Shown: positions 8,904-30,116 of the stretch, in pieces
Layout: every line of letters starts with the position of its first letter
Numbering within the stretch: the stretch's first letter is position 1
Source of the DNA: an uncultured Lentisphaeria bacterium
GTDB taxonomy: Bacteria; Fidelibacterota; UBA8477
NCBI GenBank assembly: GCA_964543125.1
Contig: CAZIWX010000001.1
Coordinates: 1-58,265, forward strand
Direction: 5' to 3'
DNA: 58,265 bases
Made by a program: the position numbers and the translations under genes
Notes under the pieces: model-generated
Told to the model about the DNA's origin: nothing
The model's database searches: none
What the model saw: only the letters and a program-made list of their open reading frames with translations

Positions 8904-10886
8904 TTACTTAATGTAACTGATTTTCAGGTGTTCCGTCTGGTTGGCACTGGAAACACTGACCAGGTAAACACCACTTTCCACTGCCTGTCCTGAATCATCG
9001 CGGCCATTCCAGCGATAACGCCCGAACCCATCCAGTATGACCTCATCGGAATATACCTGCTGTCCCAGGCTGTTAAAAATTCGGATAGCGATTACCTGAC
9101 GGCGGGTTACCGTAATGGGGAAAGTTACCTGCCCGTTAAAAGGATTAGGGAAAGCCGGGTACAACAGAAAATCCTGTGGCAGGCCGCCGATTTCCGGCCC
9201 AATAGAAACTACCTGCTGAACTCTGCGGTACACCCATTTGTCCGGGTCGAATTGGATCGTGGTGGGAATAAACGGTAAATCCACATCAGTCTGCATGGAA
9301 CGCGAGTCATTCCAAACCCGAACCACTGTATCCCGGGTAGACGTGGCAAAGTGAAAATCAATGGGCATGGCGTAGGTTGGATAGGACGTAGCCTGAACCT
9401 GCTCAACATGCAGCGTTGTTTGCGAAGTAACACCATCCGTACTGCGGGTCTCGTACCACCATTGATACGATGGGCGGCCGCTCCCATAAATCCATTCATC
9501 AAAAAACCACTCCAGGCTGCTACCATAAACCGTTTCACAGACCCCCTGGAAATCGCTGGTTTTGACAGTGGCGTATTGAAATTCCTCCCGATATTGATGG
9601 AGAATATCGAAAAAATTCGAATCACCCACCACATGGCGCAACATGTGGAGTACCCAGGCGGCTTTGTCATAAACGATCCGGTAAAAAATGGAACCGACGC
9701 TTGAAGTATCAACCCGGAAAATCGATCCGCCAAAATCATTGTCTTTTGAAGCCATTTTGGAAAAATAGGCGGCTGTTCCATAATGTTGTTCCGCATAGAG
9801 CGCTTCCGAATAGGCCGCAAAGCCCTCATTCAACCAGATATGGTGAAAATCAGCGCAAGTGATCATGTCGCCCCACCACTGATGCGCCATTTCATGGGCA
9901 TTTAGATATTCGCCATTGCCGCCCATACTGGAGCCGGTTTGATGTTCCATGCCACCACCCCAGTTGAACTGGACCATCCCATATTTTTCGTTGGCAAAAG
10001 GATATTTACCAAACAGGGTGTTGTAAGCATCCAGCATATAAGCGGTTTGCGAGTGCCAATAAGTGTAGTACGCCGAATAGGTTTCCGGGTAAACCCAATA
10101 TTGAAGTTTCATGGAATCACCATCGGCAAAATAATACATATCCTGCCAAAAGCTGTAATTAGTGATCGCCAGGTGCACCAGGTAAGTGGCAATCGGGTAA
10201 TGATGCTCCCAAAACCAGGTTGTGGTGCCGTCGTGATTATTCAGCGTATCCACCAGCAAACCATTGGAAACGACGACCAATCCGTCGGGAACGCGTACCG
10301 TGACAGTCAGAGAGTCGGCTTTATCCCGGGGCGAATCTTTACAGGGCCACCAGGTGTGGGCGCCATAGGGTTCGCTTAAGGTGGAAATAATGCGTTGGCC
10401 GTTATGATAATCAAAAGCAAAGCCCTGAAACCCCACATCTTCCTGGGGGCGCCCGTGGTAGGCAATACCTATAGTGGCCGATTCACCGGCGTTGATGGAA
10501 TCAGTTAGCATCACAGTCAACAGCGAGCCGGTTTGGCTGAAACTCGCGGCATCGAGATAAACTGAATCCACGCTGAGCACAGCGGACAAATCCAGCATGA
10601 TCGTGTTCAAGCCGGCAACCTGAGCGGTGAGGTTTATTCGGGTCTGACCCCGGAGATCCTCATTTTCCGGATCAATATCAAAATAAAGATTATAACTGGA
10701 GACATCATAATCGAACATGGCATCATTGGTCACCGGCCGGGCCAAGGCACGCATTTCCAGCCGGTAATCGTCCACCGCTTTACAAATTATTTCGTCGTTC
10801 GGGGGTGCCAATGGCTGAGCCAGGATAATGGCAAACGGTAAAAAAAACAGGGCTACTCTGGAGTGAAAATGCATGTGCCGCCTCAC
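8904..10886 (-). CDS. M1-family zinc aminopeptidase with T9SS C-terminal sorting domain
   Basis: HEMAHQWWG...WLNEGFA zincin/gluzincin motifs and an N-terminal signal peptide. C-terminal ...FPNPFNGQVTFPITV...GVYLVSVSS...HLKISYIK is a T9SS CTD. Confidence 0.85.
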   Translation of the reverse strand: MRRHMHFHSRVALFFLPFAIILAQPLAPPNDEIICKAVDDYRLEMRALARPVTNDAMFDYDVSSYNLYFDIDPENEDLRGQTRINLTAQVAGLNTIMLDLSAVLSVDSVYLDAASFSQTGSLLTVMLTDSINAGESATIGIAYHGRPQEDVGFQGFAFDYHNGQRIISTLSEPYGAHTWWPCKDSPRDKADSLTVTVRVPDGLVVVSNGLLVDTLNNHDGTTTWFWEHHYPIATYLVHLAITNYSFWQDMYYFADGDSMKLQYWVYPETYSAYYTYWHSQTAYMLDAYNTLFGKYPFANEKYGMVQFNWGGGMEHQTGSSMGGNGEYLNAHEMAHQWWGDMITCADFHHIWLNEGFAAYSEALYAEQHYGTAAYFSKMASKDNDFGGSIFRVDTSSVGSIFYRIVYDKAAWVLHMLRHVVGDSNFFDILHQYREEFQYATVKTSDFQGVCETVYGSSLEWFFDEWIYGSGRPSYQWWYETRSTDGVTSQTTLHVEQVQATSYPTYAMPIDFHFATSTRDTVVRVWNDSRSMQTDVDLPFIPTTIQFDPDKWVYRRVQQVVSIGPEIGGLPQDFLLYPAFPNPFNGQVTFPITVTRRQVIAIRIFNSLGQQVYSDEVILDGFGRYRWNGRDDSGQAVESGVYLVSVSSANQTEHLKISYIK

Positions 10887-10973
10887 TAGTGTCCGGTAAA
10901 CGGTCTGAGACTCCTTTGAGTGGGGATAAATTATCCCGGCTCAAAGCAAATAAAACCAAAAGAGAATCAGACC

Positions 10974-11198
10974 ATGGTGCAAGTTAACACAATTCTACTA
11001 AAATTCCTCAGATTATTTCCGCGCTACGAATTTGAGAAACCGGGAAACCGTTACAATGCGAATCACCAGACCAAATATTTCAATGGCTGGCAACAGCTCA
11101 TTGTATTGTTGTTTACCCAAGGAGGCAGGCAGGCCAGTTTAAGAGACATAGAGACATCCCTGTCAGTCAATTATTTCAAGCGAGGCCCAATAAGCTAA
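10974..11198 (+). pseudogene. N-terminal fragment (about 75 aa) of an IS4-family transposase (DUF4372-type N-terminus)
   Basis: ...FPRYEFEKPGNRYNANHQTKYFNGWQQLIVLLFTQGGRQASLRDIETSL... matches the conserved N-terminal block of these transposases, which are normally about 380-400 aa. The ORF stops after 75 aa and no DDE domain follows. Confidence 0.6.
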
Positions 11199-11432
11199 TG
11201 TTGTGAGTTTTACCGTTAACTTTTTTATGTTAACCTCCTATTTGGAATTCATTGAAATAAATATCGATATTCCCATGTATTGAATTATCTAATAGTTCTT
11301 GCCAAATCAGAAATAATTTGTTGTGTGTTAATACTCTATAAAATTCAGAGAAGGAAATGGACTATTTGAAACATCTGTGGATGAGCCCCATGCTCCTCCA
11401 AATCGAAATGCTCGTCTCCGCGTGTATATATA

Positions 11433-11663
11433 TTAAGATAAATCTCGTTTCATTTGTTCATATTGCTCCCGGTTAATTTCACCACGGGCATAGCGTTTTT
11501 TTAAAACACCCAGTGCATTTTCCGTGGGTGGTAAATTATTTTGCTCGTCATGCCGCCGGCTGTTATTTACAATGGTCACAACTCCCCAGATGATCAATCC
11601 GAGAATCACTAGCCAGAAAATCCAGCCAAACCACATACCGCACCAGTCCATTCCATTCATCAT
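11433..11663 (-). CDS. SHOCT-domain small membrane protein
   Basis: One TM helix followed by the C-terminal motif LKKRYARGEINREQYEQMKRDL, which is typical of SHOCT. Confidence 0.65.
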   Translation of the reverse strand: MMNGMDWCGMWFGWIFWLVILGLIIWGVVTIVNNSRRHDEQNNLPPTENALGVLKKRYARGEINREQYEQMKRDLS

Positions 11664-11717
11664 TATATTTCTTTCCTCCCTTCAAAATATGGGTCATGCT
11701 TTTCTTTAATGATGTCT

Positions 11718-12245
11718 TTAAGAGATATCCAGATGGGCAGTCAATTTCACCGGATTTCGCAGGGTAAACACCACCGGACAGCGTGCCAGAGCCAGTTTTT
11801 CGGCTTCCTTGATTTTCTCTTCCGGTGCATCGCTTTCCACTTGGAGAATCACCCGAACCTCTTCCATGGTTGGCGCACTACCCACACCAAACACCCGCGA
11901 GAAATTCACATCGGCTTCCACCCGAGTGGTGAGTTTTTTTAATTTAATACCCAGCATGGCAGCCATGGTAGCAAATGTCCCGGTATAGCAGGAAGCCAGT
12001 CCGTAAAAGCAGTAATGCATGGGCCCCGGTTGTTTACCGCCACCGCCCATAAAGGTGGGATTATCCACTTTAAAGATTGTCTCACCGCCTTCGTAAGTGA
12101 TTTTAGACTGGAATTGCATATCGCCTTCTTCCAAAACCCACTCTCCCTGGATGACCTGCGTCTTACGGGCCGCCGATGGATCGGCTTTAATTTTTCCCTC
12201 AAACTCCTGAACCTTTTGTGTGTCAACATTGTTGAATCGTGCCAT
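11718..12245 (-). CDS. OsmC/Ohr-family (thiol peroxidase-like) protein
   Basis: 175 aa with an OsmC-like layout. Two Cys lie in ...PMHYCFYGLASCYTG... and there is a C-terminal ...LALARCPV... block. Confidence 0.7.
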   Translation of the reverse strand: MARFNNVDTQKVQEFEGKIKADPSAARKTQVIQGEWVLEEGDMQFQSKITYEGGETIFKVDNPTFMGGGGKQPGPMHYCFYGLASCYTGTFATMAAMLGIKLKKLTTRVEADVNFSRVFGVGSAPTMEEVRVILQVESDAPEEKIKEAEKLALARCPVVFTLRNPVKLTAHLDIS

Positions 12246-12320
12246 GATATTTTTCCCTTTTTTTAATTATTTTGAACTAATTAGACATCATATAATTATT
12301 AGATTCTTAACAATTAAAAC

Positions 12321-13268
12321 TTACCGGCCCATCATGTTCCCCATCATCAAGGCCCGAGCAGCAGCCATATCGATTTGCATTCCTTTAAATTCTTCTCCGA
12401 CAAACATTTTCCTCATTCCCATCATACCACCCATCATTCTTCCCATCATGCCCATCCCATCTTTGTTAGATGATGTTAGCTGTTTGATTTTAAATGTTTC
12501 CAGATAGTAACTAGTTGCCCAGATATCGTCCGGTTTTAACGCTTGTTGGAAGGGCGGCATGGGAGTTCCCTCTACTCCGATGGAAATTATTCGATACATT
12601 CCCTCCGGCGTGTTAGCGCGTTTCAACGGTCTTTCCGTGAGATTTGCAGGACGTATTGGATTTTGTTTGTAATCAACTAACATTTTTGCTAATGGACCAT
12701 CGCCTTTGCCTTCTTCACCATGGCAGCGGGCACAATTTGTTTTAAATATTCTTTCCCCGTTATTAATCAAAAGTGGGGCCTTATCAGGAGCTGGAGGTAT
12801 TGGAATACTTTCACCCATTTTCATATTTGGGGGGGATAGCGATAAAATATATTTTGCTACAGCATACATTTGTTGTTCATCTAATTGCAATTGGGGAAGC
12901 ATTGCGGTGGTGCGCACGCCTAATTTTAGTGTTGTTATCAAATCGTTTTCCGTGGGGCGGGTTCCATACGGAGTTGATTTAAATTTAAACGGATCGGTCG
13001 TAAAATCGGTAGGCTTGGTATCTAATCTATATGCCGCCGGACCATTGCCTTTTCCGTCCGCTCCGTGACAGGCAATACAATACTGATCAAATATCTTTTT
13101 TCCCGCATTTAAAATTGCAGTTTGGTTGGCATCACTTTTTATATACCTGGTAGTTCGTTCGTCTGGTTTTTGAGATTCTTCCGGATAGTTTCCATGTTCT
13201 ATCATAAAAAGTGCAAATATGGGGATTGCTCCGAGTAATATTATGCCTGAAAGTATCATTTTTTTCAT
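12321..13268 (-). CDS. Membrane-anchored dihaem c-type cytochrome with Met-rich C-terminal tail
   Basis: N-terminal TM/signal anchor and two CxxCH sites (CIACHG, CARCHG). Each is followed by ...G(T/V)..MP... distal-Met regions. The last 46 aa contain 15 Met. Confidence 0.8.
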   Translation of the reverse strand: MKKMILSGIILLGAIPIFALFMIEHGNYPEESQKPDERTTRYIKSDANQTAILNAGKKIFDQYCIACHGADGKGNGPAAYRLDTKPTDFTTDPFKFKSTPYGTRPTENDLITTLKLGVRTTAMLPQLQLDEQQMYAVAKYILSLSPPNMKMGESIPIPPAPDKAPLLINNGERIFKTNCARCHGEEGKGDGPLAKMLVDYKQNPIRPANLTERPLKRANTPEGMYRIISIGVEGTPMPPFQQALKPDDIWATSYYLETFKIKQLTSSNKDGMGMMGRMMGGMMGMRKMFVGEEFKGMQIDMAAARALMMGNMMGR

Positions 13269-13315
13269 TCTGAATTCTCCTTCTCTCCTCTAACAAGATA
13301 TTGAATCTTGTTCTC

Positions 13316-13906
13316 TTACACCCATCCGAACCGCATCAGCGTTTTATTGGCCCGCCAGGCGAATAGCGCCGCTAAAACAATCAAGCCAATGGTCAACAAT
13401 GGGGAAAATGTCCCGTAAACTTGCACACCTAAAATGATGGTGGTAATGACGATGAATAAACAGAAGGTAGCTAACCGCTTGCGCAGAACCCGGAACGGTT
13501 TTAACCGGACCGCGAAACTTTCCGGAACAGGTCCATCCGGTGTTACCTCCGCCATCCGCTTCTCAATGGCCGGCTGCAGGCTGAGATGAACATAAGAAAG
13601 CAGTCCCATCAAAACAAACAGCAAGATGGTCTTCAACAAAATCACCCAGTTTTCCCACAGCGCCTGAATACCCAGCGGACCAAAAACTAACAGCAGAAGG
13701 CCGGTAGCCAGCACGCTGGTCTGGAACACGTAGCAGCGCGCAGCGCCGCGGCGGATGATGTTCTCCATGTAACGGTCCGTTGCATAAACGAAACCGCCGC
13801 CCATCATCGTCCGCTCGTTTACCACAATTAAATTGAAAAGTGGAATGGACATGAACACAAAACTTATAATATGGAGAAACTTTAAAACATCATAAAAATT
13901 GTCCAT
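13316..13906 (-). CDS. Polytopic membrane protein, unknown function
   Basis: 196 aa with about 5 hydrophobic helices. Its ATG lies 12 nt after the TAA of the extended DsrE gene, and AGGAG sits directly behind that stop. Confidence 0.5.
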   Translation of the reverse strand: MDNFYDVLKFLHIISFVFMSIPLFNLIVVNERTMMGGGFVYATDRYMENIIRRGAARCYVFQTSVLATGLLLLVFGPLGIQALWENWVILLKTILLFVLMGLLSYVHLSLQPAIEKRMAEVTPDGPVPESFAVRLKPFRVLRKRLATFCLFIVITTIILGVQVYGTFSPLLTIGLIVLAALFAWRANKTLMRFGWV

Positions 13907-13918
13907 TGTAACTCTCCT

Positions 13919-14266
13919 TTAAAAGACTAAGGATTTTTCACTATCCTTTACCCAATTGGATAATGTATCCATACTACTTTTAACCACACCCTCTACCATA
14001 AGCGCCTGTGATACCCCACGGGCATCGCTGCAGGAGCCTCATGCGTGGACATTCGCTCCCCTTCTCAAAAGGCTTTTGATCATGCGGGCAATGTTATAAT
14101 AGCCACTGGGTGTTTTTTGATTTTCCTGGACGCAGGCCACGGCGTCGCCCAATAAAAAAACCTGCACTTTTTCCTCCGTTTTAGACAGCGCAAGTGCCAG
14201 TCGCAGGCCGTTGTAGGATCGTTCGGTTCCATAAGGGCCATCGTTTAATATGATCGTGATTATCAT
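13919..14266 (-). CDS. YchN/DsrE-family sulfur-carrier-like protein, putative selenoprotein (Sec at codon 76, TGA 14039-14041)
   Basis: The track ORF stops at TGA. The same frame continues as GSCSDARGVSQALMVEGVVKSSMDTLSNWVKDSEKSLVF* to TAA 13919-13921. This gives a 115-aa protein of normal family length, with U-G-S-C in place of the C-x-x-C of Cys homologues. A SECIS-like hairpin follows the TGA. Confidence 0.75.
14005..14034 (-). promoter_or_regulatory. Candidate bacterial SECIS hairpin
   Basis: Numbering is mRNA +1 = U of UGA. Lower stem: +8..+11 CCUG pairs with +34..+37 CAGG. Upper stem: +16..+21 GAUGCC pairs with +27..+32 GGUAUC, with one G-U pair. The apical loop carries G at +23 and U at +24. 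Confidence 0.55.
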
Positions 14267-14322
14267 TTACTATCCTTGTTTTACGATGAATTCTAAACTG
14301 AATCAAAATCAGGCTCAATCGT

Positions 14323-14982
14323 TTATCCTTCAACCGGCAAGCCGGCCTCTTTCCATTCCAGAACACCGTCTGCAAATCGAACCACTTTATAACCAGAATT
14401 CCTTAACATTTTTGCCGCTTCTACCGACAACACGCAATAGGGACCGCGGCAATAGGCCACAATTTCCCGGTCTCGCGGAATTTCCTCCATTCGATCTTTT
14501 AGCTCCTCTAAAGGGAGGGACAACGATCCCCGAATATGCCCTTGCTGATATTCCACTCGCGGCCTTACATCAATTACCGTTATCTCGTGATTTCGGAGGC
14601 GGTTCCACAACTCTTCGCGGGTAATCGGTTCCATTTCATCGCGCTCATGGAAAAACAACTTTGTAACCTCCCGGATTTCTGCATTCCGGTTTTCCGCCAG
14701 GGATTGAAGATTCTTCCAGCAATGAAACACATCACCATCTGCCAGACGATAAAAGATACGCACCCCTTCTCGACGATTTTGGATTAGCCGGGCATTCTTC
14801 AAAATTTGCAGATGGCGGGAAGTATTTGCGATAGCCATGCCGACTTGCCCGGCCAGGGAATCCACATCCCGCTCTCCTTGCGCCAACACATCAATCATTT
14901 CCAAGCGCCTGGGGCTGGCGAAAGCGTAGGCCATTTTAGCAAATTCCTGAAAAACCGCATCTTTGAATTCTCTGCCTGTCAT
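14323..14982 (-). CDS. ArsR/SmtB-family HTH regulator fused to a rhodanese domain
   Basis: N-terminal ...PRRLEMIDVLAQGERDVDSLAGQVGMAIANTSRHLQILKNARL... is a wHTH. The C-terminal rhodanese has the active-site loop AYCRGPYC. Confidence 0.85.
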   Translation of the reverse strand: MTGREFKDAVFQEFAKMAYAFASPRRLEMIDVLAQGERDVDSLAGQVGMAIANTSRHLQILKNARLIQNRREGVRIFYRLADGDVFHCWKNLQSLAENRNAEIREVTKLFFHERDEMEPITREELWNRLRNHEITVIDVRPRVEYQQGHIRGSLSLPLEELKDRMEEIPRDREIVAYCRGPYCVLSVEAAKMLRNSGYKVVRFADGVLEWKEAGLPVEG

Positions 14983-14995
14983 ATTCTCGAACTCA

Positions 14996-15017
14996 TATTC
15001 AATTCATTGATTGAATA
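14996..15017. promoter_or_regulatory. Palindromic operator candidate upstream of the ArsR-rhodanese gene
   Basis: Perfect 8-6-8 palindrome TATTCAAT-tcattg-ATTGAATA, starting 13 nt upstream of the ATG at 14982. AT-rich -10-like hexamers lie just beyond it. Confidence 0.45.
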
Positions 15018-15475
15018 GTATAATAATTTAAAAAACGAATTCAATAAAAACTTTTGGTAAGGATGCTTTTGAAGCCGGAGACCCTGGAAAATTCAATAAT
15101 ATTTTACTTTGAGGGAACTCTATAACCTGCTACAAATTGTAAACTCAAAAAAGGAGGCCTAAAAAAAATTGCCTTCTACTGTCCCGCAGCCCTTTCAAAT
15201 CTTTCTTCCAAAAAACTTAATATCCAAGTAATCTTAAACAAATGACATAAAAAATAATTGGTATTTAATACGGACTATGAAGGGTTAGCAAGGTCACCAC
15301 CGTGGAAATACCCTGCTCCACCTGACAATTGATCACCGTTTGAAAAAATCTCTTGTAATTGGGGGGGTATCTTACATTGATTTTGTAAAACCAAACTTTT
15401 GCGGATGAGGATATCACCAAGTGTGGTTTTCAGTCTTATGCACAAATTTTAATCCTGTTAAGGAAGGAGTTCGTT

Positions 15476-16442
15476 ATGAAGACCTATTACCGGTATTTAC
15501 TCGTTAGTCTGATCCCACTGATACCGGTGTCGTTTGGCCGGGCGTAGGTTATGCCCAATGCTCATCTCTTGAACCTTGTCGATTCCGGATATCACCAATC
15601 TCCGGTACAGGCTTTCGAGCCGGCTCCATTTACCAGTGATCAATATATCGATTTATTCTGCGTGCTAAGCAGCAACTCCTGGCCGTCTAGTCCAGAGGCG
15701 GTGGGACAAATTGTTAATCAGTCCAATAGCATATTCAACCTGTCTCTGTTTGGAAACAGTGCGGCACGAGATATTGCTTTCGGAGATATCAATCACGATG
15801 GACTGATTGACCTGGCAACCGACAAATATACCTACCTGAACCAGGGTAACGGGTATGATCCTAACCAAGTTCACTCCCTTGTAAATGGTGGTTCTTATGT
15901 AAAAACCGTTAAATTCGGTGATTATAATGGAGATGGTTATTCAGATTTACTGGTGCTTGAATCAATGAATCACGTAAAACTGTGGAGAAGTGATCACGGC
16001 GTTTATCATACCGCTCCGGATTATTTTTCCCAAGAAGGGCTTGTCTTCTTCGATGTTTCCCGGGATCTGGAGGTAGCCGATCTACACGGATTGGGCGGAA
16101 AAAGCGTCCTTATTTCGATTGACGGCGGTTACTACCAGTCTGGAGAAGGCCTCTACCAATTCGATCCCGTAACGGTAGATGCAGTGCCCGAGCCTCCCAA
16201 ATACCTGGTAATCAATGGCGCTGTAGGTAGGCATCCCCGGGTCCGGCAACGTCCGCTTCGAGATTTACGATGTCCGGGGGCGGTTGGTTTATTCCACAAT
16301 GAAAACCTACGAAGCCGGAATGCATGAATTCCGCTGGAACGGAACGAACAATGCCGGGAACTTACTGCCCTCCGGGATATATATCTGTAGAGTTATTAGC
16401 GGTGATCAAATGCAACTTGCCCGGCTGCTGTACACTAAATGA
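15476..16442 (+). pseudogene. FG-GAP/VCBS-repeat T9SS-secreted protein, inactivated by an in-frame TAG and a +1 frameshift
   Basis: ATG 15476 has the RBS AAGGAAGGAG and encodes the signal peptide MKTYYRYLLVSLIPLIPVSFGRA. An in-frame TAG (15545-15547) follows, then the 258-aa FG-GAP ORF of the track. A tandem GTAG|GTAG (16223-16230) shifts the frame. The T9SS CTD (...NVRFEIYDVRGRLVY...GIYICRVISGDQMQLARLLYTK*) is read in the other frame, ending at 16442. Confidence 0.7.
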
Positions 16443-18268
16443 GAAACAGTGTAATTTCCATCATTGTCCTAATCCCCCTATTCCTCCGCGGTATGGGGGG
16501 CTTGGGCCAAATCGAAGTTGACTGGAACGGTGACCGCTATCCGGATGTGATCACCTGGCGTCAGCATACCGTTGAAGTCAGCCTCAATCAAATGGGGGTG
16601 CTGCAGCCGGCCGGCGTGCTCCGGGATTATCCGGACCAAACGATCAACACGGTGGAAACGACCCTGGACGGACAATCAATATCGGTCGGGTTTACAGATG
16701 GAGGGCACGCTACGATACTCCTTGGTAATCCCATTTCCCGGTACATTTCCCCGCCTCGAATCCCAAGATACGATCCACCGCCCAATACGGTCGATTTCGA
16801 TCTCATCTTCTCCAGCCCCCGGGAGCACTATTCTTTTCGCAGTTTCGGCATGGCCGACCTGGATGGTGACGGCGCGGACGAAGTCCTGACGACCAGATAC
16901 ACACCCGCTCTTGGTGTTAATGCGGTTACGCTGGATGTCTGGAAATCAACCGGGGATAACCAACTGGCAGTCTTCGATACCCTGCCGGGAGCGGTGAGTT
17001 ATTCCACGGAATCGGTGTTAAAGGCGGATGTTGTTAATGATGGTGAAATTTGGACCCTGTTCACACTTCGCATTTCCTCTGAATTTACCATGTTGAAAAT
17101 CGTAAATGACCACTTGCTTTATTACTCACTTATGACAGCGGGATGGTTACCCTATTCTGTTGATGTAGCGGATATCGATCAGGATGGTATAACCGATCTG
17201 GTCACTAATCAGATTTGGGATGGTGACCATCCGCCGACATGGATTTATTTCAATGAGTATGCTTACCAAACACCAAACCATCAAAACTTTTATTACGACG
17301 ATTATTTCAGAATTGAAGGCGTCAACTACGGCGTCAGCTATATCCGGGCCGGGGATATCGATGGGGATGGAATGGAGGAGGTGGTGCTGGGTTCAAGGGG
17401 TGCGCTGTACTATGCCGACACCACCTACATCTATTACTTCGACAAAGCACCGGATTCTTTACAATTCACCTTGAAACGCATTCCCATTCCCTATGCCTTC
17501 AATCCGGCTTATATCGGGCTCTGCGACAGCGACCACGATGGCGTAGACGAAATTCTGGCAATGGGACCCCTGGTTTTATCGCTTAATCCCTGGCGGACGG
17601 CTGAATCCATCATCCTGGTAAAGCAGGAGGACGGGCATTTCCAAATTACCGATATGGATACCACCACTTTGCCTCAAGGTGGATCACATCAGAACATCTT
17701 AAAGGAATATGAGGGAATTTATTATTTTCTAGCTCCTTTTAGCTGGCTTGTTGAAACCGCTCACGGTGTCTCATCATTGTTCCTGTTTAAAATCGAGAGT
17801 GGGCAAATCCAGCATCTGTGGCACAGCCCGTTGATCGACCCCAGTGAAACCTGGTCCGGTGCGATAGGCGACACGGACGGAGATGGCTTGTTGGAAGTGG
17901 CCGGGGTTTTCAATACCTGGAGCTGGCTTTTGTATGAAACCCCTGATATTCATACGGGAATCGCCGCCGAACCTGATCATGGGCTACCGGAGTCATTCAC
18001 GCTTGGACAGCCCTATCCCAATCCGTTCAATGCGGCAGTTCATATTCCCTTCCGGCTGCCGGTTGAGACACACATAAGACTCACCATATACGACGTCACC
18101 GGCCGGCAGGTATGGCAGCCGGCACCGGCTAATTATCAAGCCGGAAACTATAATTTTAGCTGGTTGGGAGAGGATCAGAACGGACGGACGGTGGCAAGTG
18201 GGGTTTATTTTTTACGAATTCAGGCGGGAGACCTGAACCAAACCAGGAAGATTGTATTACTCCGGTAA
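16439..18268 (+). CDS. FG-GAP/VCBS-repeat protein with T9SS C-terminal sorting domain
   Basis: Signal peptide plus several D-x-D-G-D-G...D integrin-like repeats (ADLDGDGADE, ADIDQDGITD, GDIDGDGMEE, CDSDHDGVDE, GDTDGDGLLE). C-terminal ...QPYPNPFNAAVHIPF...IYDVTGRQV...GVYFLRIQAG...RKIVLLR. Confidence 0.8.
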   Translation: MRNSVISIIVLIPLFLRGMGGLGQIEVDWNGDRYPDVITWRQHTVEVSLNQMGVLQPAGVLRDYPDQTINTVETTLDGQSISVGFTDGGHATILLGNPISRYISPPRIPRYDPPPNTVDFDLIFSSPREHYSFRSFGMADLDGDGADEVLTTRYTPALGVNAVTLDVWKSTGDNQLAVFDTLPGAVSYSTESVLKADVVNDGEIWTLFTLRISSEFTMLKIVNDHLLYYSLMTAGWLPYSVDVADIDQDGITDLVTNQIWDGDHPPTWIYFNEYAYQTPNHQNFYYDDYFRIEGVNYGVSYIRAGDIDGDGMEEVVLGSRGALYYADTTYIYYFDKAPDSLQFTLKRIPIPYAFNPAYIGLCDSDHDGVDEILAMGPLVLSLNPWRTAESIILVKQEDGHFQITDMDTTTLPQGGSHQNILKEYEGIYYFLAPFSWLVETAHGVSSLFLFKIESGQIQHLWHSPLIDPSETWSGAIGDTDGDGLLEVAGVFNTWSWLLYETPDIHTGIAAEPDHGLPESFTLGQPYPNPFNAAVHIPFRLPVETHIRLTIYDVTGRQVWQPAPANYQAGNYNFSWLGEDQNGRTVASGVYFLRIQAGDLNQTRKIVLLR

Positions 18269-18278
18269 TTGATTCCTT

Positions 18279-18803
18279 TTACATGGGCCAGAAATTGGAA
18301 TTATTCCAATATTCTTCCCTCAGGTCATCATCCAATCTACGCAGACGCTCCTGATGCTCCAACTCCCAATCGGTTAACCAATGAAACAATTTTTTCCCTT
18401 CCGGGTCTTCAGTGTTTTTTTCCGCCTGCTGATAAAACTTGAAGGCTTTTTCCTCCAGTGTGAGAGCGATATTTATCGCGGAGGAGTCGAAATAACTTTC
18501 CTTGAGTTTGTCCAGGAATTCATGATTCAGAATAGGATCGTCAAAGGCAAACTTTAATTCATCTTCCGTGGGCAGTTCCCATTTTCCCGTATTCATCAAA
18601 TTTTGGAAGGTAATTTTCAGGATTTTCAGGTGATGTTCCTCCTCCCGCGCCATGAATTGAAACAATTCCCGGGCCACGTCGGATCGGGCGGTCCTGGCGG
18701 CCATCAGGAAATATTCATGCCCGTTCATTTCCAATATAATGGCCTGCTTCAGGGCATCTTCCGCAGTCACCAGCCTGGGCTCGGTCCGGGGTGCTGTATT
18801 CAT
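18279..18803 (-). CDS. Ferritin-like / rubrerythrin-family di-iron four-helix-bundle protein
   Basis: Two E...ExxH pairs (EMNGHEYF / AREEEHH and LEEKAFKFY / DWELEHQ). Confidence 0.6.
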   Translation of the reverse strand: MNTAPRTEPRLVTAEDALKQAIILEMNGHEYFLMAARTARSDVARELFQFMAREEEHHLKILKITFQNLMNTGKWELPTEDELKFAFDDPILNHEFLDKLKESYFDSSAINIALTLEEKAFKFYQQAEKNTEDPEGKKLFHWLTDWELEHQERLRRLDDDLREEYWNNSNFWPM

Positions 18804-28721: not shown

Positions 28722-30116
28722 CTACTTGAGATATAAAACCTTCTGTGTGACCAGCCGGTTGCCATTGGAAAGTCGAACGAAGTATAATCCTGAAGATTGT
28801 CTGGTTGGAGACCACGGACGGGAATACAATCCGGCCGGTAAGGTCTCATTAAGCAGGGTCGTAACCAGGTGGCCGTTCAGATCATAAATCGATAAGGTGA
28901 TTTTACCGGGTGAATCCAAGGTGAACGAAATAGTCGTCGTGGGATTGAACGGGTTGGGGTAACAGGCATTCAGCGTAAACTGACTCGGTTCAACAATTGG
29001 TTCGGTTGTGACTCCGACAAATGGTTCGGAGGATAAATGGAAACTTCCATTTTCCAGTGGCAGCACGGCCTGTGGGGATCCTAACGGAATCATTTGTGCA
29101 CTAAAGGTGCCGTCCCAAGCCGCGCTGGTGCGGGTAAAATCAACCGTTCCGGATAGACCCACATAGAGATTCTCTGAAATCAGACTGTCAAGAGTCCCAA
29201 AATCCGGATTTGTTATGATCAATAGCAAATCCGTAAGGGTTGCTTGAGGCAGGTAAAAACACTGGGATTCAGGAAACGTCGTTCCGGGCGGGGCAATGGA
29301 GACGGTCCCGGACTCCAGGGGCTCGATCGTTCTTACCCTGAGACCAAAAATATTATACTCACCGGTAGTGACTTGCCGATACGCAACGAGGGAGTAATTG
29401 CTGGTATCACCGGACATCGTGGTAATTCCCGTAGCGCCCGCTGATGAATTCACCGGATCAAAGTTACCCGTTGCATCCAAATGAGTGCCGTCAAAATCAA
29501 AGCTCACACTCCCGGCAACATAATCGGGCACCGGCATTGTATTTTGAAAGGTTCCGGACCCGTTGCCAATTAAGTAAGCCTGAAGTGATCCCGTATCGAA
29601 AACAGCGCCGGTGAATCCGATACTGATTTCACCATCCGAAATTGAACTGACGGTGATATTTCCCATGGTTGAAAGGCGAACACTCATGGTCAGGAGACTG
29701 TCCAAATCACCGCCGCCATTGATAATCGCATCAACGAAACCGGCATCCACCTGAGGTATCCAGCCGTACAACACGGGTAATCCCGCAAAAGGATTTATCA
29801 GATAAGTGCGGTCGTTGATGGTTCCCGTATCGCTGATGGACAGGACAAACACATCGGCCATAACCGTGCTCGAATCAGAAGGGCTCAGTTGATAAGCCAG
29901 CGCTATAAAAAGCGATGTATCCCCGTTCGTCGAAATAAAAGCGCCACTCCCTGCGGCTGTATCGGACGTCGGGAGAATCGACCCGGATACCGCCCAGCTC
30001 TGATTGGGAATAACGGTTCCGTACGAAAAACTAAGGGAACCCTGATTGTACAAATTTTGACCGATCACCGAGTTGATAACAACTATAAATAACATGATTT
30101 TAATGAATTTGGCCAT
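28722..30116 (-). CDS. Secreted protein of unknown function with T9SS C-terminal sorting domain; internally duplicated beta-rich body
   Basis: Signal peptide, then two similar roughly 170-aa Ser/Thr/Gly-rich segments. C-terminal ...CYPNPFNPTTTISFTL...IYDLNGHLV...GLYFVRLSNG...VLYLK. Confidence 0.7.
   Translation of the reverse strand: MAKFIKIMLFIVVINSVIGQNLYNQGSLSFSYGTVIPNQSWAVSGSILPTSDTAAGSGAFISTNGDTSLFIALAYQLSPSDSSTVMADVFVLSISDTGTINDRTYLINPFAGLPVLYGWIPQVDAGFVDAIINGGGDLDSLLTMSVRLSTMGNITVSSISDGEISIGFTGAVFDTGSLQAYLIGNGSGTFQNTMPVPDYVAGSVSFDFDGTHLDATGNFDPVNSSAGATGITTMSGDTSNYSLVAYRQVTTGEYNIFGLRVRTIEPLESGTVSIAPPGTTFPESQCFYLPQATLTDLLLIITNPDFGTLDSLISENLYVGLSGTVDFTRTSAAWDGTFSAQMIPLGSPQAVLPLENGSFHLSSEPFVGVTTEPIVEPSQFTLNACYPNPFNPTTTISFTLDSPGKITLSIYDLNGHLVTTLLNETLPAGLYSRPWSPTRQSSGLYFVRLSNGNRLVTQKVLYLK

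Follow-up and report, generated by a model that had tools for sequence, protein, structure and literature searches.

A DsrE selenoprotein, a rhodanese-fused ArsR regulator and a candidate reactive-sulfur operon in an uncultured bacterium

What is a block of six small genes for when it joins a selenoprotein of the DsrE family to an ArsR-type regulator fused to a rhodanese, and which of its genes truly belong together? This question is raised by positions 11,433 to 15,017 of a 58,265-nucleotide contig from an uncultured bacterium (GenBank assembly GCA_964543125.1, contig CAZIWX010000001.1), the whole of which is called the window below. The best explanation of the whole that we can offer, and to which we give an even chance, is an autoregulated stress operon with a single promoter that deals with sulfide or sulfane sulfur, possibly also with selenium; it is probably induced by reactive sulfur or a related toxic element. 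The genes and signals concerned are listed here, with selenocysteine abbreviated as Sec, the selenocysteine insertion sequence as SECIS, helix-turn-helix as HTH, amino acids as aa and transmembrane as TM.

14982..14323, minus strand: gene for an ArsR-HTH domain joined to a rhodanese (219 aa; PF01022 and PF00581)
14266..13919, minus strand: DsrE gene (115 codons including the in-frame TGA; PF02635)
14041..14039, minus strand: predicted UGA selenocysteine codon, at a column that holds a stop or Cys among homologues
14000..14039, minus strand: SECIS-like stem-loop, with the core GAUGCCC-GUG-GGGUAUC at 14026..14010 (RNAalifold and synonymous-site constraint)
13906..13316, minus strand: gene for TM196, the name given here to the 196-aa membrane protein (no Pfam or NCBIfam match)
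13268..12321, minus strand: dihaem cytochrome c gene (315 aa; hydrophobic anchor at the N-terminus, two CxxCH motifs, Met-rich tail)
12245..11718, minus strand: OsmC-fold gene (175 aa; PF02566)
11663..11433, minus strand: SHOCT membrane-protein gene (76 aa; one TM helix and a cytoplasmic SHOCT domain; PF09851)
14996-15017, no strand: 22-bp palindrome TATTCAATcaatgaATTGAATA, predicted operator with the arms TATTCAAT-N6-ATTGAATA
15044..15017, minus strand: promoter-like TTGAAT-16-TATACT, a consensus match of a kind whose number in the region is at chance level

The first-pass annotation, made from the letters of the DNA alone, had described six same-strand, closely spaced genes without an internal terminator, and this description stands: the open reading frame (ORF) listing gives spacers of 56, 12, 47, 75 and 54 bp in gene order, and a simple consensus scan of the minus strand inside the block found no terminator-like site. 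The spacer between DsrE and TM196 is 12 bp because the DsrE frame ends at 13919, which corrects the earlier note. The gene identities proposed there also agree with the Pfam and NCBIfam matches, TM196 being without a family and the cytochrome being dihaem by its two CxxCH motifs. The six genes are presumably co-transcribed. For comparison we used 80 TM196-centred genome loci, 80 DsrE-centred metagenome loci, 41 ArsR-rhodanese loci (a sample biased by the mode of fetching) and five cytochrome contexts; L numbers label fetched loci and P numbers label homologues.

A predicted selenocysteine in the DsrE protein

Among 110 DsrE genes in the fetched loci, the column homologous to the in-frame TGA holds Cys in 97 and a stop in 13, and every one of these 13 stops is TGA. 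Beyond the TGA, the frame continues for 39 conserved codons and closes with TAA at 13921..13919. The hairpin obtained with RNAalifold has seven pairs, two of them with compensatory changes, and the Sec forms are nearly uniform in the codons used for Ala82, Arg83 and Gly84 (GCC in 11/11, CGT in 10/11 and GGG in 11/11), whereas the Cys forms that encode D-A-R-G use GCC in 29/74, CGT in 17/74 and GGG in only 7/74. Kinship of the Sec forms inflates this codon contrast, yet their proteins are just 57-70% identical to that of the window. Since folding of the single sequence was not significant by itself (z = -0.72), the SECIS call needs this comparative evidence. Judged by the alignments, the in-frame UGA is predicted to be a genuine selenocysteine codon, and the Sec-containing DsrE of the first-pass annotation is upheld by the uniform TGA, the Cys homologues and the constrained hairpin.

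The protein matches PF02635 with 97.2 bits (cut-off 22.7) over residues 1-115, which places it in the DsrE family, and the alignment of UGA with Cys, the conserved downstream frame and the SECIS hairpin together make it a predicted UxxC DsrE-like selenoprotein. Its motif reads VHA-U76-G-S-C79, with Cys45 as a third invariant Cys, and Sec76 aligns with the conserved Cys of the TusD/DsrE active position, the one that carries the persulfide in those proteins. The equivalog models led us to reject identity with TusD or TusC (30.7 bits against a cut-off of 89 and 32.5 against 94, respectively), and the nearest structure is that of Escherichia coli YchN (1JX7, E=1.2e-18). Because the TusD/TusC cut-offs are unreached and the YchN match has E~1e-18, the DsrE protein of the window is YchN-like and not TusD or DsrE proper. 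To our knowledge, the structure of E. coli YchN has been solved and no function has been assigned to it.

Listings of DsrE-like UxxC selenoproteins go back to 2005 (PMC1088965; review PMC13188914) and describe neither their function nor their partners. The protein of the window is a member, with the same fold family and Sec at the active Cys position; what is added here is a constant ArsR-rhodanese partner, a frequent TM196 partner and the invariant Cys45. Other clusters of small redox proteins in Sec variants are the 'three selenoprotein operon' Tso, with the ArsR-type regulator TsoR, and SAO, whose SaoD is DsrE-like with CxxC (PMC13188914; bioRxiv 10.1101/2022.07.06.499078). Weak NCBIfam matches had raised membership of the window's operon in Tso, but it was rejected because every Tso model stays far under its cut-off, for instance TsoR (40.5 bits against 115) and TsoB (52.9 against 805). 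In one fetched locus (L044, 7001-7351), the frame of a DsrE gene adjoining TM196 is broken by a stop elsewhere than at the catalytic position (…KEHP*VQV…); a sequencing error, loss of gene function or some other cause may lie behind it.

A selenoprotein at this position invites the reading that the operon is specific to selenium, delivering or detoxifying selenide or selenite and, for instance, feeding selenophosphate synthetase. In its favour, NCBIfam contains selenoprotein forms of the rhodanese, OsmC-like, type III sulfide:quinone reductase (SQR) and methyltransferase families alike, NifS/selenocysteine-lyase-like genes lie near some loci, and a connection with selenium use has been drawn for YedF, whose DsrE domain has CGxC (PMC5322559). 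The predominance of Cys among the homologous DsrE genes argues against it, as does the absence of selA, selB, selD and yedE from both the window and the recurrent neighbours, and we regard it as hardly probable.

The regulator and its predicted operator

The regulator belongs to the ArsR/SmtB family, with 36.2 bits against PF01022 (cut-off 22) and 72.6 bits against its best model, NF033788 'metalloregulator ArsR/SmtB' (cut-off 55), and its second domain has the rhodanese fold, with 61.9 bits against PF00581 (cut-off 22.2). Its closest named match is a KSB1 protein, 78% identical. The family of ArsR-rhodanese fusions comprises at least 7334 clusters at E<=1e-20, which the sources annotate only generically, and our literature search found nothing specific to such fusions.

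The palindrome that the first-pass annotation placed in front of this gene is confirmed, and it is the sole TATTCA-N6-10-TGAATA match in the window (0.02 expected). The -10 hexamer of the promoter-like site adjoins it. The regulators of the 41 loci are 32-78% identical to that of the window, and in 17 of these loci (6.4 kb) a palindrome of the form TATTC-N-...-N-GAATA lies 5' of the ArsR-rhodanese gene; it nearly always takes the 22-bp form and stands 20-79 bp from the start codon, and it is kept in front of ArsR-rhodanese genes with no more than 37-78% identity. Elsewhere in the fetched DNA (1.41 Mb), 22 looser sites were counted. The family consensus is TATTCAA-N8-TTGAATA (22 bp). This recurrence upstream of ArsR-rhodanese genes makes the palindrome a likely operator, and there is good comparative evidence for assigning it to an autoregulated promoter; TATTCAATCAATGAATTGAATA is the likely target DNA predicted for the ArsR-rhodanese regulator.

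As to what the regulator senses, a likeness to BigR and SqrR, which the first-pass annotation had named as persulfide sensors, did not hold for the sensor cysteines. These repressors carry their sensor Cys pair in alpha2 and alpha5, whereas here the invariant cysteines are found only in the fused rhodanese: among 11 full-length homologues the alpha2 Cys is absent, no Cys occurs in the alpha3 region, and C88, the only Cys of the ArsR domain, is present in 5. We therefore rejected BigR/SqrR identity, the BigR model NF040642 giving 42.3 bits against a cut-off of 155. C178 and C183, in contrast, are invariant in all 11 and are the only cysteines to be so; they delimit the rhodanese active-site loop C178-R-G-P-Y-C183, in which C178 is the putative catalytic Cys.

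The regulatory logic is nevertheless familiar. BigR of Xylella and Agrobacterium, SqrR of Rhodobacter, PigS-PmpAB of Serratia and SoxR/sHdrR of Hyphomicrobium share with the window an ArsR autorepressor on a palindromic operator, and BigR/SqrR-type systems control sulfurtransferases, membrane proteins with Cys and sulfide oxidisers, just as SQR, persulfide-dioxygenase-rhodanese and TauE genes occur in related loci here. The CstR system is similar in overall design. In E. coli YgaV-YgaP, too, an ArsR regulator is coupled to a rhodanese, that of YgaP being membrane-anchored, and proteins with a YgaP-like TM domain adjoin TM196 in 3-4 loci; in the window, however, regulator and rhodanese form one soluble polypeptide with a CRGPYC loop and other partner genes. 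Two of the cytochrome contexts have a second, short ArsR-like gene of 91-95 aa between ArsR-rhodanese and cytochrome (L170, 3696-3980; L172, 3700-3975), of which that of L170 reaches 36.8 bits against NF033788, under the cut-off of 55; the window has none.

Partners of the six genes in related loci

Downstream of ArsR-rhodanese, the 41 loci hold DsrE in 25, a type III SQR-like flavoprotein in 15 and TM196 in 12, with S-adenosylmethionine methyltransferases (9), NifS (3), MFS transporters (3) and persulfide-dioxygenase-rhodanese fusions (2) less often. From the side of DsrE, ArsR-rhodanese adjoins in 31/80 loci. From the side of TM196, a same-strand DsrE adjoins in about 29/80, usually 6-120 bp upstream and sometimes downstream, and it may belong to another, second subtype, which shares just 27-35% identity with that of the window; a full ArsR-rhodanese accompanies both DsrE and TM196 in at least 11/80. 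OsmC is found in 2/80 of the TM196-centred loci (L007 and L027) and the window-type cytochrome in 0/80. The other neighbours of TM196 are heterogeneous: methyltransferases, YHS-domain proteins, YgaP-like TM proteins, DsbD and XdhC.

The four closest metagenomic relatives (L086-L089) all have ArsR-rhodanese, DsrE and TM196, and with the TM196-centred loci they answer the call of the first-pass annotation for a search of gene neighbourhoods in related genomes: the trio is co-conserved. What surrounds it differs. In L086, the closest relative, nothing is added to the trio; in L088 a dihaem cytochrome lies between DsrE and TM196, and in L087 and L089 a set of MMPL, LolA-like and unknown proteins comes after ArsR-rhodanese. 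In one metagenome-assembled genome (MAG) of the Calditrichaceae, L027, the order of the window is complete: ArsR-rhodanese, Sec-DsrE, TM196, dihaem cytochrome c, OsmC and SHOCT, with a TauE neighbour. Its cytochrome stands in the equivalent position and is non-orthologous to that of the window (25% identical over part of the length). The whole order recurs in this locus, but the six genes are not a fixed system, and the operons are a mosaic of interchangeable modules. We observe a stable pair or hub of ArsR-rhodanese and a YchN-type DsrE with the [U/C]GxC motif; the regulon around it is modular, and membership of TM196, of OsmC and of the cytochrome-SHOCT pair is optional and exchangeable.

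The flavoprotein's best model is type III sulfide:quinone reductase (223 bits, under the selenoprotein-subtype cut-off of 525). In this biased sample, the SQR-like gene and TM196 share a locus in 0/27 cases, and they may be alternative third partners, or lineage or sampling bias may account for this. The SQR-like genes were seen in L095, L100, L103, L114, L117, L122, L130, L136, L143, L145, L146, L151, L152, L161 and L168. Three genes recur together in several lineages, placed within the module or joined to it: one encodes an MMPL/RND-like transporter, one a LolA-like/DUF1329 protein and the third a protein of about 420-450 aa without annotation. Besides L087 and L089, this set was seen in L010, L038 and L008, in all five between ArsR-rhodanese and DsrE-TM196, and in L027 (10364-12688); it hints at export across the outer membrane.

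The last three genes of the window have ties of their own. Three of the five cytochrome contexts (L170-L172) begin with ArsR-rhodanese, and these also hold SHOCT, OsmC (in L171), a gene like SQR or flavocytochrome c sulfide dehydrogenase (FCSD), a methyltransferase and DsrE. SHOCT adjoins the cytochrome family or is fused to it in all three. Natural fusions of a cytochrome with Met-rich tail, a TM helix and SHOCT occur in P0285, P0333, P0335 and L172 (4001-5161), and they tie together two genes that OsmC separates in the window. The cytochrome has 112 homologues, mostly from Ignavibacteria/Chlorobi, and its Met-rich C-terminal tail is a conserved motif (...VGEExKGMxIDMAAARAWMMGNMMGR). Identity with CcoP/FixP of cbb3 oxidases was rejected, with 54.9 bits against 179.95 for TIGR00782 and no oxidase genes adjoining. 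The SHOCT protein matches PF09851 with 36.1 bits (cut-off 27), so that the domain is present. The OsmC protein matches PF02566 with 68.1 bits (cut-off 27.5) and has Cys86 (A-S-C-Y-T) and Cys156 (R-C-P-V), as expected of an OsmC/Ohr protein and predicted thiol peroxidase. It gives 76 bits with NF041052 'OsmC-related (seleno)protein', under the cut-off of 95, and appears to correspond, with Cys in place of Sec, to the UxxT OsmC-like selenoprotein family. With the L027 gene it shares 84% identity, and with that of L007 74%.

Base composition sets part of the block apart. The first-pass annotation had judged the block AT-rich by eye, and overall it is, with a G+C content (GC) of 0.450 against a mean of 0.4965 (sd 0.012, minimum 0.468) in same-size windows elsewhere. 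The deficit is uneven, however, being concentrated in the cytochrome c gene (GC at third codon positions, GC3, 0.37), the SHOCT gene (GC3 0.46) and the spacers; the remaining four genes have a GC3 of 0.50-0.61, equal to or slightly under that of housekeeping genes (0.52-0.62). The best matches of cytochrome and SHOCT are from Ignavibacteria, the closest named one of the regulator from KSB1. This atypical composition and these Ignavibacteria-like matches suggest that cytochrome and SHOCT were added to a native trio in a separate, recent acquisition.

It follows to ask whether there is a single functional unit at all, or a conserved trio that happens to stand upstream of an unrelated, horizontally acquired and separately expressed cytochrome c, OsmC and SHOCT. 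The trio-only L086 and the atypical GC3 of two genes agree with this, as do the 75-bp AT-rich spacer before OsmC, which could hold a promoter, and the remnant of a mobile element at the end of the block:

10920..11198, plus strand: truncated IS4-type transposase remnant (context), a 92-aa ORF with DUF4372 alone

DUF4372 is the N-terminal domain of IS4-type transposases, and the remnant reported by the first-pass annotation is present as described. Yet the accessory genes recur directly behind ArsR-rhodanese in L027, L088, L170, L171 and L172, the window has a single operator, and its coding strand has no terminator-like site. We find it very unlikely that the downstream genes are a mere accident of position.

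TM196 is the member about which least could be learned from annotation, and the remote-homology and structure prediction called for by the first-pass annotation was run. The AlphaFold2 model built with 68 homologues has five helices (pLDDT 87.9, pTM 0.84). With this model, Foldseek found nothing in the PDB at E<=0.001; PDB sequences searched by profile gave no match either, and none was obtained at threshold in Pfam and NCBIfam or in the PLSDB plasmids. An exhaustive profile search led to no proteins beyond its own compact family, for which clustering at 50% gave 192 representatives, most of them fragments. The family comprises 1620 matches that are 60-87% identical and form essentially one cluster at 50% identity, the closest being metagenome sequences 87% identical; this conservation is unusually high for a small membrane protein. 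It spans at least 10 phyla, from KSB1, Fidelibacterota/Marinimicrobia, Aminicenantes, Gemmatimonadota, Bacteroidota, Ignavibacteria and Omnitrophota to Lentisphaerae, Zixibacteria, Desulfobacterota and one Sulfurimonas MAG. No natural fusion was seen among the 120 homologues listed, all of 178-200 aa. On the model, TM196 is thus predicted to be an orphan five-helix inner-membrane family outside any described one.

Of the 16 Lys/Arg residues that are not in helices, every one belongs to loop 29-57, loop 107-146 or the C-terminal tail, with none in the other loops; from this distribution the N-terminus would be outside and the C-terminus inside, with the long conserved helical extensions in the cytoplasm. 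Relatives down to 22% identity keep H12, E48, G69 and R142 invariant and R32, C58, K92 and R139 nearly so. His12 in the first TM helix (TM1) and Lys92 in the third point toward the outer half of the membrane, and Arg32, Glu48, Cys58, Arg139 and Arg142 are at the cytoplasmic face. Against CopD, HemJ (UPF0093) and DUF2214, the protein of the window scores below 12 bits in each case (cut-offs 34). Its relatives have sub-threshold matches to DUF2214 (19/21), UPF0093 (13/21) and CopD (10/21), with best E-values of 5e-4 to 7e-6, and also to DUF4149; these matches stay short of family membership and hint at a distant relationship.

These weak matches bear on a respiratory alternative, in which DsrE would hold a sulfur or selenium substrate whose electrons cross the membrane by way of TM196 and a haem b on its His12, reaching the periplasmic dihaem cytochrome c and then an oxidase, or travel in the opposite direction. 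HemJ binds haem b through an invariant His in TM1, and TM196 likewise has a single invariant His there. A dihaem cytochrome c, though non-orthologous, stands in the operons of the window, L027 and L088, an SQR/FCSD-like flavoprotein follows the cytochrome in L170 and L172, and DsbD adjoins TM196 in a few loci. The last two loci resemble flavocytochrome c sulfide dehydrogenase (FccAB) in pairing a dihaem cytochrome c with such a flavoprotein; the window's operon, however, has no flavoprotein gene, and its cytochrome differs in the membrane anchor, the Met-rich tail and the SHOCT partner. The haem electron conduit is weakened by the finding that CxxCH proteins beside TM196 are not above background (7/89 against 22/493, p = 0.18), which also led us to reject the cytochrome as an obligate partner of TM196, and the majority of TM196 loci have no cytochrome. 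With one invariant His, bis-His ligation of haem would need a dimer, no solved structure resembles the model at the threshold used, and the cytochrome gene, with its aberrant composition, was probably acquired on its own. A respiratory role of this kind is distinctly unlikely. The link from sulfur or selenium handling to periplasmic electron transfer that the first-pass annotation had thought possible gained no support, as the cytochrome family also adjoins a Rieske/cytochrome b complex.

The rest of the window is ordinary chromosome, with genes for pyruvate:ferredoxin oxidoreductase, ATP synthase, ParAB and AspRS. The sequence was found in two DNA runs of one microbial-mat metagenome study, and the closest named relatives of the window are in candidate division KSB1. 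The operon is preceded by a 530-bp stretch (15018-15550) that reaches to a divergent FG-GAP gene and is the most AT-rich nearby (GC about 0.40), with no ORF of note and no Rfam match; an Rfam scan of 10800-15700 gave zero family matches. A rubrerythrin gene lies at 18279-18803. Several flanking genes, at 8904-10886, 15551-18268 and 28722-30116, have secreted products that end in a C-terminal sorting domain for type IX secretion, among them an M1 peptidase, FG-GAP repeat proteins and one unannotated protein, which fits an FCB-group-like or KSB1 organism.

A proposed stress operon for reactive sulfur

We assign the operon to sulfur because of the SQR-like, persulfide-dioxygenase-rhodanese, NifS and TauE genes in related operons and the known chemistry of rhodanese and DsrE proteins. 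On this assignment, the ArsR-rhodanese repressor would bind TATTCAA-N8-TTGAATA against the -10 hexamer and shut its own operon, and it would be released when C178-x4-C183 is persulfidated or bridged by sulfane sulfur or a similar thiophile. The genes so controlled would handle reactive sulfur, possibly selenium, at the inner membrane. In the cytoplasm, the DsrE selenoprotein would accept the chalcogen on Sec76, and Cys79 could resolve the adduct. TM196 may pass a sulfur or selenium anion to or from DsrE, much as YeeE/TsuA does with a TusA-like partner. Cytochrome c, SHOCT and OsmC would make up a second module of this regulon, one that was acquired on its own and acts on the periplasmic and oxidative side of the stress.

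For TM196, we reason from analogy. Cys58 lies beside an Arg cluster on the side of the membrane that DsrE shares, and this fits a relay for a sulfur or selenium oxyanion or a persulfide. In the thiosulfate uptake pair YeeE/TsuA-YeeD/TsuB and in YedE1E2/PmpAB, a transporter of zero-valent sulfur (PMC10812762), a small membrane protein with Cys similarly stands beside a cytoplasmic sulfur carrier, frequently with ArsR-type regulation. Neither sequence nor fold relates TM196 to YeeE, however, and the carrier here is a YchN-type DsrE and not TusA-like; for TM196 and DsrE the comparison serves as a working analogy. It is a doubtful idea that TM196 stands for a new class of small inner-membrane relays under rhodanese-sensing ArsR repressors, either a conduit for chalcogen anions or a haem electron link. 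As a conduit, TM196 might use its Cys58 and Arg cluster on the cytoplasmic side to deliver sulfur or selenium directly to the Sec or Cys of a YchN-type DsrE hexamer; as a haem protein, it is possible that TM196 connects periplasmic cytochromes c with the cytoplasmic selenoprotein across the membrane.

Several observations weigh against this model. The contact between DsrE and TM196 is proposed from gene adjacency and topology only; TM196 is often solitary or amid unrelated genes far from any DsrE, and it adjoins DsrE in only 2-5/80 of the DsrE-centred loci. Within the window's operon there is no SQR, persulfide dioxygenase or sulfite exporter. One of the cytochrome contexts lies beside Rieske/cytochrome b genes and another amid other cytochromes, and a small metatranscriptome of the same mat sample has zero reads on the region. 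Related loci, moreover, stand beside P-type ATPases, MerT/MerA-like genes, CDF and Nramp transporters, YHS-domain proteins are among the neighbours of TM196, ArsM-like methyltransferases are common, and ArsR-type regulators sense metals too.

This last group of observations belongs to a rival in which the operon serves resistance to, or homeostasis of, a metal or metalloid (As, Sb, Te, Hg or Cu) that is bound by the ArsR domain or the Cys pair of the rhodanese; the U/CxxC of DsrE and the Cys and His of TM196 would chelate and move the element, and the Met tail of the cytochrome would bind Cu(I) or Ag(I). The best model of the regulator is indeed a metalloregulator, the ATPases have HMA domains, MerT-HMA occurs with a MerA-like reductase, the methyltransferases (ArsM-like or UbiE-like) are found in 9/41 operons, the Met-rich tail is conserved and TM196 has its weak CopD matches. 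On the other side, the classical metal sites are absent, there being no alpha3 Cys in the ArsR domain and its sole Cys, C88, not being conserved. The commonest enzyme partner is the SQR-like sulfide oxidoreductase, the persulfide-dioxygenase-rhodanese and TauE neighbours indicate sulfur, the CopD matches are far under the Pfam threshold, and the window's operon has no efflux pump. A metal or metalloid function therefore seems unlikely to us. The sulfur or selenium redox role given to the operon by the first-pass annotation gains on the side of sulfur from the SQR-like genes (15/41), the persulfide-dioxygenase-rhodanese fusions, NifS and TauE, and is tempered by these metal neighbours.

Familiar in this operon are the parts list and the regulatory logic; new are the rhodanese-fused sensor with its operator, the pairing of DsrE with TM196 and that of the cytochrome with SHOCT, for none of which our literature search found a description. 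Persulfide-sensing ArsR repressors, together with the transporters and sulfurtransferases under them, are being actively studied in the biology of sulfide and reactive sulfur in bacteria. For the ArsR-rhodanese family, an operator and a sensor Cys pair are now predicted and a regulon is defined. The YchN-type DsrE proteins gain a set of partners open to testing, and an unannotated membrane protein so well conserved over many phyla is brought to attention. If TM196 is a conduit to the DsrE hexamer, the long-orphan YchN family would gain a function. Uncertain as the function is, the locus provides concrete hypotheses for three uncharacterised and widespread protein families, and, if the reactive-sulfur assignment is true, it would represent an additional route by which bacteria of sediments and mats (KSB1, Calditrichota, Ignavibacteria, Gemmatimonadota, Marinimicrobia and others) handle sulfide, sulfane sulfur or selenium.

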